DNA from: Escherichia phage LM33_P1
Direction: 5' to 3' (one strand)
Sequence record: NC_031937.1
DNA: 38,979 nt
The notes beneath the pieces are model-generated. The model made no database searches. It saw only the letters and a list, made by a program, of their open reading frames with translations, and was not told where the DNA came from. A program made the translations under genes and the position numbers. Positions 2,925 to 38,979 of the stretch are shown here, piece by piece (positions within the stretch are counted from its first letter, which is position 1; each line of letters begins with the position of its first letter).

Positions 2925-4892
2925 ATGAGCGTCATCTCTATTGACAAGCACGACTTCTCTGATGTGTCGAACGCCATTGAGCCGTTTAACCTACTGGCTG
3001 ACCACTACGGGCAAGACATTGCAGTCAAACAGCTTCAGCTTGAGCACGAGGCATACACTGAAGGCGAGCGACGTTTCATCAAGAACCTTGAGAGACAGAC
3101 TGAGCGAGGGGAACTGGCAGACAATCAGGTCGCCAAGCCTTTGATGCAGACTCTGGTCCCTAAGATTGCGCAAGCCGTCAAGGAGTGGCATGAAGGTCCA
3201 GACGGGAAGCTGTCAACCTCTCGTCCGAGCGTAGCGTTCACCATGTTGAGCACTGAAGAGAAGGCCGTAAAGGTCCGCTCTTTGCGCATCTCCTGCGAGT
3301 CTGCTGCGGTTATCATATTGAAGGTCATACTCTCCAAGCTGGTCAAGCCTGAAGGGATACCGATTACACCGATGGCCTCAGCGATAGGTCGCACACTTGA
3401 GGACGAAATCCGCTTCGGTCGCATCCGTGACAAGGAGAAAGAGCACTTCAAGAAGGCGATAGCTGATAACCTGAATAAGCGGGCCGGGGCGTCCTACAAG
3501 AAAGCCTACATGCAAGCGGTCGAGGCATCCATGCTGGAGCAAGGCCAACTGGAAGATGCGTGGGGGACTTGGAGTCCGACCGAGGCTGTCCACGTTGGAA
3601 TCAAGATGCTGGAGATTGTCATCCAGTCCACACAACTGGTCGAGCTTAAGCGTTACGGTGCTGGCAATGCAGCGGCTGACGTTGAGATGGTCCACCTGTC
3701 AGACTTCTGGGTCAAGAAGATGGCACAACGAGGATTCAGCCTTGCGGGTATAGCTCCAGTCTACCAGCCTTGCGTCGTTCCACCTAAGCCGTGGACTGGT
3801 GTCGTAGGCGGTGGGTACTGGGCCAAAGGACGCAGACCATTACCACTGATTCGCTTAGGGTCTAAGTCTGCGGTAGCACGCTACGAAGACGTGTATATGC
3901 CTGAAGTCTATGACGCTGTGAACATCATTCAGAATACACCTTGGAAAGTGAACAAGAAGGTTCTGGAAGTGGTGAACATGGTCGAGAAGCTGAACAACAC
4001 GCCTATTGATGACATCCCTCAGATGGAACCGCTGAAGCCTGAGGACTATGCGGGTGAGACTGAAGAAGAACTCAAGGCATGGAAGAAGGCTGCTGCTGGT
4101 ATCTATCGCCGCGAGAAGGCCAGACAGTCACGAAGATTGTCACTGAGCTTTATCGTCAACCAAGCGAACAAGTTCTCTCAGTTCAAGGCCATCTGGTTCC
4201 CGTATAACATGGACTGGCGCGGTCGCGTCTACGCTGTGCCGATGTTCAACCCTCAGGGTAACGACATGCAAAAGGGTCTTCTGACTCTGGCAGTCGGTAA
4301 GCCTATTGGTGCTGATGGTTTCAAATGGCTGAAGGTCCACGGTGCAAACTGCGCGGGTGTCGATAAAGTCACCTTCGAGGAGCGTATCAAGTGGGTGGAA
4401 GATAACCACGACAACATCATGGCTGCTGCCAAGGCACCGATGGATAGCATTGAGTGGTGGGGCAAGTTAGACTCTCCGTTCTGCTTCCTAGCGTTCTGCT
4501 TCGAGTATGCTGGCGTAATGCACCACGGCTTGTCTTACTCCTGCTCGCTGCCGATAGCGTTCGATGGGTCCTGCTCTGGGATTCAGCACTTCAGCGCTAT
4601 GCTTCGCGACCACATCGGTGGACATGCAGTAAACCTGACGCCATCCGGTAAGGTCCAAGACATCTACCGCATCGTGTCTGACCGCATTGAGGAGGAGCTT
4701 AAAGTCCTACTGGTTAACGGTACGGACAACGAGATGGTAACTCACGAGGACAAGAAAACTGGTGAGATTACCGAGCGTCTCAAGCTGGGGACACGAGAGC
4801 TTGCCCGTCAGTGGCTGACCTACGGTATGTCACGAAAGGTCACTAAGCGTTCGGTCATGACTCTGGCCTACGGGTCGAAAGAGTACGGCTGA
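2925..4892 (+). CDS. 1: T7-like single-subunit DNA-directed RNA polymerase, N-terminal 655 codons, ends at in-frame TGA
   Basis: Collinear similarity to T7 RNAP; ORF terminates ...MTLAYGSKEYG* where T7 continues ...GSKEFGFRQQ. Confidence 0.9.
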   Translation: MSVISIDKHDFSDVSNAIEPFNLLADHYGQDIAVKQLQLEHEAYTEGERRFIKNLERQTERGELADNQVAKPLMQTLVPKIAQAVKEWHEGPDGKLSTSRPSVAFTMLSTEEKAVKVRSLRISCESAAVIILKVILSKLVKPEGIPITPMASAIGRTLEDEIRFGRIRDKEKEHFKKAIADNLNKRAGASYKKAYMQAVEASMLEQGQLEDAWGTWSPTEAVHVGIKMLEIVIQSTQLVELKRYGAGNAAADVEMVHLSDFWVKKMAQRGFSLAGIAPVYQPCVVPPKPWTGVVGGGYWAKGRRPLPLIRLGSKSAVARYEDVYMPEVYDAVNIIQNTPWKVNKKVLEVVNMVEKLNNTPIDDIPQMEPLKPEDYAGETEEELKAWKKAAAGIYRREKARQSRRLSLSFIVNQANKFSQFKAIWFPYNMDWRGRVYAVPMFNPQGNDMQKGLLTLAVGKPIGADGFKWLKVHGANCAGVDKVTFEERIKWVEDNHDNIMAAAKAPMDSIEWWGKLDSPFCFLAFCFEYAGVMHHGLSYSCSLPIAFDGSCSGIQHFSAMLRDHIGGHAVNLTPSGKVQDIYRIVSDRIEEELKVLLVNGTDNEMVTHEDKKTGEITERLKLGTRELARQWLTYGMSRKVTKRSVMTLAYGSKEYG

Positions 4893-4926
4893 GGACATCG
4901 TGATGCCAGGGACATCGTGATGCCAG
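4893..4926 (+). repeat. Perfect 17-nt tandem direct repeat (GGACATCGTGATGCCAG x2) inside the RNAP gene
   Basis: Read directly; lies immediately 3' of the in-frame TGA (4890-4892). Confidence 0.9.
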
Positions 4927-5606
4927 CGATTGACTCAGGGTCTGGCGCTATGTTCACTGAACCAAGCCAAGCATCTCGCTTCATGGCTAAGATGATTTGG
5001 GAAGCTGTGAGTGTGACCGTAGTTGCTGCGGTTGACGCGATGAAATGGCTTCAGGGTGCTGCCAAGCTGCTTGCTGCTGAAGTGAAGGACAAGAAGACTG
5101 GAGAAATCCTGAAGCCTTGTCTTCCGGTACACTGGGTCACACCTGATGGTTTCCCTGTCTGGCAGGAATACCGCAAGAAGGACACCACTCGTCTGAACCT
5201 GATGTTCTTAGGGTCATTCAACCTTCAGCCTACCGTCAACAAAGGCACGAAGAAAGAGCTGGACAAGCACAAGCAGGAGTCAGGCATTAGCCCGAACTTC
5301 GTCCACTCACAAGATGGTAGCCACCTCCGCAAGACTGTAGTCCACACGCACCGCAAATATGGCGTGATGTCATTCGCAGTGATTCACGATAGCTTCGGGA
5401 CCATCCCGGCTGACGCTGAGTATCTGTTCCGTGGAGTCCGTGAGACGATGGTCGAGACCTACCGCGACAACGATGTGCTGCTTGACTTCTACGAGCAGTT
5501 TGAATACCAGCTTCACGAGAGCCAGAGAGACAAGTTGCCTGAGCTTCCGAAGAAAGGTAAACTGAATATCGAAGACATCTTGTCTTCAGACTTTGCATTC
5601 GCTTAA
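4917..5606 (+). CDS. 1: T7-like RNA polymerase, C-terminal 229 codons (same frame as N-terminal part)
   Basis: Similarity to T7 RNAP C-terminus through ...HDSFGTIPADA... to terminal FAFA; same frame as 2925..4892, separated by TGA plus 8 codons. Confidence 0.88.
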   Translation: MMPAIDSGSGAMFTEPSQASRFMAKMIWEAVSVTVVAAVDAMKWLQGAAKLLAAEVKDKKTGEILKPCLPVHWVTPDGFPVWQEYRKKDTTRLNLMFLGSFNLQPTVNKGTKKELDKHKQESGISPNFVHSQDGSHLRKTVVHTHRKYGVMSFAVIHDSFGTIPADAEYLFRGVRETMVETYRDNDVLLDFYEQFEYQLHESQRDKLPELPKKGKLNIEDILSSDFAFA

Positions 5607-17112: not shown

Positions 17113-17163
17113 GTCTAACCGATAGTCATATCCTATCAATCCAATAGTCATCCATAGGTGAAA

Positions 17164-17186
17164 CACTAAACTATCACTATAGGGAC
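17164..17186 (+). promoter_or_regulatory. Phage RNAP promoter (CTAAACTATCACTATAGGGACT)
   Basis: Consensus match; position equivalent to T7 phi6.5. Confidence 0.75.
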
Positions 17187-17248
17187 TTTAGGACCTAAGA
17201 TATGACTATAAGATAGACTTTAGTCTTAACTTAAAGAGGAGATTCAAG

Positions 17249-38767: not shown

Positions 38768-38935
38768 CTAAGGTCAGTTCATAGCTGACGCTACTCTACT
38801 GACCTTAGCTACTGTAGTCAAGGACTTTAGGTAACACCTTAAGAGAAGCTCACTTAGGGTCATCCTACTTATTGGTCTATCCTAGTGTCGCCTGACCTAC
38901 GGTCCTTGACCTACAGTGGCTGTGGCCTACAGTAG
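38768..38935. repeat. Right-end region with 10-bp inverted repeat (CTAAGGTCAG/CTGACCTTAG) and CCTACAGT/CCTACGGT direct repeats
   Basis: Same CCTACAGT motif as the left-end array; window ends ...CATCTCACAC resembling the T7 terminal-repeat start TCTCACAG. Confidence 0.5.
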
Positions 38936-38979
38936 TGACGATGAGTTTTGGACAAAAAGTTTGAGACCACATCTCACAC

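Follow-up and report, generated by a model that had tools for sequence, protein, structure and literature searches.

An interruption of the RNA polymerase gene in the deposited genome of Escherichia phage LM33_P1 is very probably an error of the record

The RNA polymerase (RNAP) of bacteriophage T7 (PDB 1ARO, 1CEZ and 1QLN) is the product of gene 1 of the Autographiviridae, and a gene of the same type occupies the same place in the genome of Escherichia phage LM33_P1, a T7-like Kayfunavirus with T7-type promoters. In the deposited LM33_P1 sequence, however, the gene breaks off at the residue matching T7 F646, and an overwrite affects seven codons (T7 646-652). From established T7 biology, a truncated RNAP should be lethal. 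Finishing and assembly artefacts in phage deposits likewise present one record with a broken essential gene, while resequencing and relatives are intact; typical artefacts (homopolymer frameshifts, point errors, unmerged overlaps) alter length, however, and a length-neutral overwrite of 19 nucleotides is unusual among them. One recognised kind of template-switch mutation is a local copy-overwrite that preserves length, and short template-switch or slippage mutations likewise produce a substitution cluster from one local copy, while length changes little or not at all. Natural template-switch events normally jump between stretches of microhomology or use the opposite strand as template, whereas the lesion in LM33_P1 is a direct copy without microhomology. 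Engineered split T7 RNAPs (Segall-Shapiro et al. 2014, PMC4299498) also consist of two co-linear fragments, the second of which carries the specificity loop and the C-terminus; the LM33_P1 break, in contrast, lies at T7 645 / 655-656, loses ca. 10 conserved residues, and is absent on resequencing.

The window (the whole stretch of DNA that was analysed, 38,979 nucleotides) comes from record LT594300, the original LM33_P1 deposit. The T7-type single-subunit RNAP gene (gene 1) spans positions 2925-5606 on the plus strand. As written, it is divided between an N-terminal ORF at 2925-4892 (plus strand; 655 amino acids followed by TGA; SBT28095.1 / YP_009324481.1) and a C-terminal ORF at 4917-5606 (plus strand), which may start from GTG at 4917 or ATG at 4920 and whose 228-amino-acid version is SBT28096.1 / YP_009324482.1. 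The in-frame TGA (4890-4892, plus strand) interrupts the RNAP frame right after ...MTLAYGSKEYG and stands where a TTC codon is expected (F656, corresponding to T7 F646). It is followed by GGACATCGTGATGCCAG, present twice with 100% identity and no spacer, at 4893-4909 and 4910-4926 (plus strand). A preliminary description had reported the stop codon and the spacer-less repeat at these positions, as well as resumption of the same frame to a conserved FAFA end; all of this was found, the downstream ORF ending in ...SSDFAFA.

Neither the RNAP frame nor its length is altered across the TGA and the repeat. Eleven codons separate the conserved G from PAIDSG in the window, a spacing shared with T7 (FRQQVLEDTIQ) and relatives (FADQVYEDIVM). 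The earlier proposal that this length had been preserved while the content was overwritten by a downstream copy could be made exact: positions 4891-4909 of the window are identical to positions 4908-4926 of the intact gene, i.e., 19 nucleotides at an offset of 17, and every other offset fails to explain the block. Thus, at 4891-4909 (plus strand) the 19-nucleotide block GAGGACATCGTGATGCCAG, a copy of intact 4908-4926, is written over TCGCAGACCAAGTTTACGA, and this overwrite covers all 12 mismatches with the intact sequence with no insertion or deletion. Translation of the first repeat copy from position 4891 gives EDIVMP, reproducing the earlier observation of an off-frame match. The first copy of the 17-mer is spurious and is missing from all relatives, while the second is native sequence that encodes (E)DIVMP(A). 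A single 19-nucleotide overwrite therefore accounts for the TGA and the perfect 17-nucleotide tandem repeat and leaves length and frame as they were.

The junctions of the lesion read GGCT/GAGGACATC and GCCAG/GGACATCG (slash, point of joining). The k-mers TACGGCTGAGGACATC and GATGCCAGGGACATCG are diagnostic of the lesion; their wild-type counterparts are TACGGCTTCGCAGACC and GTTTACGAGGACATCG. At both junctions and in both directions, microhomology amounted to 0 nucleotides. Other perfect tandem duplications in the window whose unit is 8 nucleotides or longer all have 9-nucleotide units, and the longest tandem unit obtained in 200 shuffles was 12 nucleotides, versus 17 observed, which places the repeat far beyond chance.

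Pfam matches above the gathering score were obtained for both ORFs: PF14700 (RPOL_N, 60.7 bits) and PF00940 (RNA_pol, 190.7 bits) for the first, and PF00940 (151.1 bits) for the second. The PF00940 profile is shared out between them, with positions 1-174 in the first ORF and 194-376 in the second. The intact LM33_P1 RNAP aligns with the T7 enzyme end to end (residues 1-893 to T7 residues 1-883; E-value 0, 1278 bits), and near the lesion the alignment is gapless, with a numbering offset of 10. In the window, D547 and D822, which correspond to the catalytic D537 and D812 of T7 RNAP, fall in the first and second ORF, respectively, with the TGA between them, and no single ORF holds both. An 893-amino-acid RNAP was called in a second LM33_P1 record, OZ035813.1, and in nine further records or contigs of relatives, and in these the two aspartates lie in one ORF. 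Sixteen relatives show no variation at F656, A657, Q659, V660, Y661, E662, D663, and I664, and neither fragment contains these residues.

Record OZ035813.1 ('Kayfunavirus LM33P1') is also 38,979 bases long and is rotated by 3,376 bases relative to the window. The two sequences are identical at 38,967 of 38,979 positions, and the 12 mismatches are all inside 4891-4909. At the site of the lesion OZ035813.1 reads TTC GCA GAC CAA GTT TAC GAG (FADQVYE), and its RNAP is a single protein of 893 amino acids; the fetched relatives other than metagenome contig L007 share this reading. The Guelin collection lists LM33_P1 with the length of this record, and the names and lengths of two sibling OZ records also agree with it. 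Its phages were sequenced by Nextera/MiniSeq, with de novo SPAdes assembly (10.1101/2023.11.22.567924). Judging from the methods of that preprint (given for the collection, not for LM33_P1 by name), the different rotation and the sequencing run (ERR12949712), OZ035813.1 appears to be an independent resequencing. A Logan contig from the same run, ERR12949712_3 (38,877 nucleotides), shares an identical stretch of 13,409 nucleotides with the window. The intact 893-amino-acid protein occurs both in NCBI and in Logan read-based assemblies. The 655- and 228-amino-acid products were found in NCBI and UniRef under LM33_P1, and their sole source is the NCBI/ENA/UniRef deposit of this phage; a look-up of contigs encoding the 655-amino-acid product gave no gene. 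A window altered relative to the public deposit was rejected as an explanation, since exactly these two products are public and a published paper cites the split in LT594300.

The intact arrangement is also the one found in relatives. OZ035813.1, K1F, and HC13 read GFADQVYEDIVMPA at the site of the lesion and 22664UKE3-2 reads GFAGQVYEDIVMPA; 13 distinct genomes among the fetched loci carry the wild-type 45-mer, while the duplicated 17-mer occurs in none of 22 fetched loci. At the position of the stop codon, every fetched relative spanning the region has TTC, with the sole exception of one metagenome contig, L007 (GTC). None of 390 related phage records exceeded 98.5% identity to the window over positions 4500-5300, and the lesion junction was not found in any of them. 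In records aligned at the lesion the shortfall in identity falls in the overwritten block, and in three of them it comprises all 12 mismatches. The 34-nucleotide junction had no exact match in viral_contigs and none in metagenome_contigs. Relatives with an identical junction, which the preliminary description had considered as a sign of a natural arrangement, were thus encountered neither among phage records, nor in viral or metagenome collections, nor among fetched loci.

We conclude that the interruption of the RNAP gene is very probably an error in LT594300 and its RefSeq copy and not a property of the phage. An otherwise identical second assembly is without the lesion, and so are relatives and public collections. 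The preliminary description had named a sense codon and a single 17-mer as the outcome that would point to an artefact, and the second assembly of the same phage has TTC and contains the 17-mer only once. In the course of assembly, gap filling or manual editing, GAGGACATCGTGATGCCAG, whose true site is 4908-4926, would have been written again 17 bases upstream, the misplaced 19 bases replacing TCGCAGACCAAGTTTACGA at 4891-4909; the real phage would then carry the seven codons of OZ035813.1 and make an ordinary 893-amino-acid T7-type RNAP. The faulty step was presumably computational or editorial. Eleven phage-type promoters were observed on the plus strand versus 0.04 expected, and LM33_P1 has a latent period of 9 minutes and a burst size of 317 (PMC5434335). 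A broken RNAP would seem to clash with this phenotype of the isolate, i.e., its 11 promoters and fast growth. A counterpoint to a record error is that de Bruijn assembly should not create the two novel junction k-mers unless reads contain them; these k-mers point either to a step after assembly or to chimeric or variant molecules that really existed.

The latter source would be available if the DNA sequenced in 2016 contained a real, non-functional complex mutation, in a defective genome that was complemented in a high-titre lysate and assembled. Such a mutation would arise if replication skipped 17 nucleotides ahead, copied 19 nucleotides, and returned to register. The lesion is a clean single operation, as this route would produce, and the junction k-mers, which need a source and which de Bruijn assemblers normally do not invent, would have one. 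We nevertheless consider such a mutation unlikely. Microhomology is 0 nucleotides at either jump, unlike in polymerase slippage, and slippage between microhomologies is ruled out, none being present. In the lysate of a phage whose latent period is 9 minutes and whose burst size is 317, an RNAP-null genome cannot be the predominant one, and it is unlikely to have won the consensus. The later assembly from the same stock lineage is ancestral at the lesion and otherwise identical, from which it follows that the lesion was not fixed in the propagating lineage, and the truncated products are in no read-based assembly. The template-switch origin put forward in the preliminary description is therefore disfavoured, both by the lack of junction microhomology and by the later-sequenced lineage without the lesion.

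A naturally tolerated split, with a working two-piece RNAP made of residues 1-655 and a fragment starting from GTG 4917 or ATG 4920, is hardly credible. Both ORFs are long and lie in the same frame, and engineered split T7 RNAPs are active; saturating bisection of the T7 enzyme, however, left it functional only when the split fell at residues 67-74, 160-206, 301-302, 564-607, and 763-770 (PMC4299498), and the LM33_P1 break, at T7 645 / 655-656, is outside all five tolerated seams. The equivalent of T7 645 is in the fingers subdomain, just past the Y639 helix, a place that saturating bisection screens did not show to be tolerated. The break deletes or replaces residues that do not vary among the 16 relatives and parts the catalytic aspartates onto different ORFs, and the idea of a functional split polymerase, raised in the preliminary description, is not supported, given the position of the break and the loss of these residues. 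The gene is intact in the second LM33_P1 record, and the junction is in no relative. A Shine-Dalgarno-like AGGGA, which the same description had placed 8 nucleotides before ATG 4920, is indeed present at 4908-4912, but at a distance of 7 nucleotides. GAGGA precedes the ATG at the same place in the intact gene, so the site is no sign of an adaptation and weighs neither for nor against a split. That the 2016 stock truly carried the lesion and was viable through a two-piece or readthrough RNAP broken at the T7 645 equivalent is scarcely believable; the later stock would then have to be a different, wild-type lineage.

The RNAP of metagenome contig L007 is also interrupted, by a stop two codons upstream of that in LM33_P1 (653 + 228 amino acids), and its downstream ORF has the same length of 228 amino acids. 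The contig was rejected as a second natural case: its lesion is a different one, without a duplication and made up of two point substitutions (TAC to TAG and TTC to GTC), in a contig of 5x coverage. The downstream ORFs are of the same length because gene callers pick the same downstream ATG.

TGA is the leakiest stop codon of E. coli, and the reading frame upstream of it continues unchanged downstream; both would favour a full-length RNAP made by readthrough or frameshift bypass. This explanation is nonetheless to be dismissed as extremely improbable, since readthrough, which the preliminary description had raised, would yield only a small fraction of product, with X-GHRDAR (seven unrelated residues after the stop position) replacing FADQVYE at invariant positions, a single +1 or +2 frameshift is ruled out as a rescue by stops within 9 codons (EDIVMPGTS in the +1 frame from 4891) and 3 codons (in the other frame), and the stop is conserved neither in relatives nor in the second LM33_P1 record.

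The value of recognising the error lies in curation, i.e., correction of LT594300 and of the RefSeq copy. For the ICTV species Kayfunavirus LM33P1 these are the representative entries (proteins YP_009324481.1 and YP_009324482.1), and the phage is under study for therapy. The split has already been taken as biology in the literature: a 2026 comparative paper, citing the split in LT594300, describes the RNAP of LM33_P1 as 'two separate enzymes' (PMC13298934). Flagging the 19-nucleotide error, with OZ035813.1 as the correct sequence, would halt its spread to protein databases and comparative analyses. Were the interruption real, it would add to the places where this heavily engineered enzyme is known to tolerate a split; the evidence is to the contrary.

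Truncated RNAP calls were seen in other Kayfunavirus contigs as well, namely a 744-amino-acid product in phage pO91 and fragments of 218 and 310 amino acids on long contigs.

The RNA polymerase (RNAP) gene of LM33_P1 is divided as deposited. A first plus-strand ORF (2925-4892) ends ...MTLAYGSKEYG and is closed by an in-frame TGA (4890-4892). Two identical plus-strand copies of the 17-mer GGACATCGTGATGCCAG follow with no spacer (4893-4909 and 4910-4926), and a second plus-strand ORF, in the frame of the first, reaches ...SSDFAFA (4917-5606). The stop, the perfect tandem and the same-frame downstream ORF are all present as the preliminary description reported them. Pfam matches are RPOL_N and RNA_pol profile positions 1-174 in the first ORF, and RNA_pol positions 194-376 in the second. 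The window's other perfect tandem duplications with units of at least 8 nt have 9-nt units only, and 200 shuffles gave perfect units of up to 12 nt; chance therefore does not account for the 17-nt tandem. Because the exact 655-aa (SBT28095.1/YP_009324481.1) and 228-aa (SBT28096.1/YP_009324482.1) products are public under LM33_P1, the window is the original record of this T7-like Kayfunavirus. The split was already in the deposit and is no later introduction.

A megablast search with window 4500-5300 matched 390 related phage records, the best at 98.5% identity and gap-free. Among these records is OZ035813.1 ('Kayfunavirus LM33P1'), a second record of the phage. It too is 38,979 bases long; after rotation by 3,376 bases, 38,967 of its positions agree with the window and all 12 mismatches fall inside 4891-4909. 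Here OZ035813.1 and the related phages K1F, HC13 and 22664UKE3-2 read GGC TTC GCA GAC CAA GTT TAC GAG GAC ATC GTG ATG CCA GCG, or G FADQVY EDIVMP A, 22664UKE3-2 deviating in one codon (GGC, G, in place of GAC). Window 4891-4909 equals 4908-4926 of the intact gene exactly: the 19-mer GAGGACATCGTGATGCCAG has been placed 17 nt upstream of its true site, replacing TCGCAGACCAAGTTTACGA, and no other offset fits. The earlier view that a downstream copy overwrote the upstream codons was thus correct, and a single 19-nt overwrite accounts for the TGA, the 17-nt tandem, the +1-frame EDIVMP and the unchanged length. A search for microhomology at both junctions, in either direction, found none.

We conclude that the interruption is very probably an error in the deposited record. 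The overwrite would have entered at assembler consensus, gap filling or manual editing; a computational or editorial origin is favoured over polymerase slippage because microhomology is lacking and length is exactly preserved. In OZ035813.1 the block is ancestral, as in K1F and HC13, and nothing differs from the window elsewhere, so the lesion cannot have been fixed in the LM33_P1 lineage that continued propagating; the 12 substitutions cannot credibly have reverted exactly. The table of the Guelin phage collection agrees with OZ035813.1 on size (LM33_P1, 38,979), and two sibling OZ records fit it by name and length (T147_P5, 40,209; PDP351_P4, 39,163). For this collection, genomes were assembled de novo with SPAdes from Nextera/MiniSeq sequencing (10.1101/2023.11.22.567924). 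The intact 893-aa RNAP was found in NCBI and in Logan read-based assemblies (two contigs, 20-50 kb), and Logan contig ERR12949712_3 (38,877 nt) shares 13,409 nt with the window at 100% identity. No read-assembly source was found for the truncated products. Among fetched loci, the wild-type 45-mer occurs in 13 distinct genomes and the duplicated 17-mer in none; the 34-nt junction had no match in viral and metagenome collections. That the 2016 DNA preparation held a real defective variant is unlikely. Correcting the record would be valuable: it represents an ICTV species, and has already been interpreted as carrying two polymerase genes.

The preliminary description had also considered a split polymerase and TGA readthrough, naming a sense codon and a single 17-mer as signs of an artefact instead; OZ035813.1 has TTC and one 17-mer. 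Alignment with T7 RNAP is gap-free around the lesion (numbering offset 10). In T7 numbering, the TGA takes the place of F646 and the overwritten block spans 646-652; G645 closes the first fragment, I655 or Q656 would open the second, and the catalytic aspartates D537 and D812 are separated onto different ORFs. Sixteen relatives show no variation at the lost F656, A657, Q659, V660, Y661 and E662 (LM33_P1 numbering). When T7 RNAP was bisected in a saturating screen, functional splits came only from 67-74, 160-206, 301-302, 564-607 and 763-770 (PMC4299498). The LM33_P1 break lies outside all five regions. The SD-like AGGGA before ATG 4920 is not an adaptation, since the intact gene already reads GAGGA there. 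A functional split polymerase is highly improbable. A recoded polymerase is just as improbable: readthrough would give GHRDAR where the intact protein has ADQVYE, and the +1 and other frames meet stops after nine and three codons. LM33_P1 has 11 phage-type promoters (AACTATCACTATAGG; all plus strand, 0.04 expected) and, with a burst of 317, a latent period of 9 minutes (PMC5434335); it therefore relies on a fully active polymerase, which it evidently possesses.

In L007, a Kayfunavirus metagenome contig (ENA ERZ24773317, NODE_1517; 39,724 nt, 5x coverage), RNAP is called as 653 and 228 aa. Two substitutions to G make up its lesion (contig 3960-3975): codon 654 has changed from TAC to TAG and, five bases further on, codon 656 from TTC to GTC, with GGC between them; a duplication was looked for there and is absent. 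The stop is two codons upstream of the window's, both lesions lying in one 20-codon stretch. The 228-aa calls are equal because gene callers fall back on the same ATG whenever a stop lies between the Met of MTLAYG and that of EDIVMP. With a different lesion, no duplication and 5x coverage, L007 was rejected as support for a natural split; we read it as a low-coverage error or a defective genome. Shortened calls were seen on other long Kayfunavirus-like records and contigs (clusters P0004, P0022, P0024, P0027): phage pO91 has one of 744 aa, and contigs of 17-40 kb have calls of 218, 310 and 362 aa. In this group, assemblies with broken gene-1 calls seem to turn up repeatedly.

T7-like genomes possess direct terminal repeats; a search of the window for identical ends of 11-400 nt found none, and ERR12949712_3 runs without interruption from window 25633 through the end-to-start junction to 62. 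This makes the record a unit-length sequence with its opening point close to the conventional left end (ends concerned, 1-62 and 38,900-38,979), which suggests some manual finishing.

T7 gene 1 is transcribed by host polymerase. The RNAP start codon is at 2925, and a perfect phage-type promoter motif (TTAACTATCACTATAGG) precedes it by about 75 nt (2834-2851), the motif's position being unchanged in K1F and every fetched relative; if it is a phage promoter, the polymerase could boost its own gene. A full phage-promoter motif (CTAAACTATCACTATAGGG) also occurs in 17158-17213, with a degenerate second copy (CTAAGATATGACTATAAGA) 29 nt after it. The early region holds three copies of CCTGACTGATAGTCA(C/T)TAAC (747-796, 1064-1093, 1792-1841), and at least two of these have an ATG 15-20 nt downstream; their core, GACTGATAGTC, is a near-palindrome, and a role as early regulatory or RNA-processing sites is possible. 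RefSeq labels the T7-type RNAP of LM33_P1, K1F, Vec13, CR44b and SH3 'N4-like RNA polymerase', which, judged from sequence, is misleading because the protein aligns with T7 RNAP end to end.
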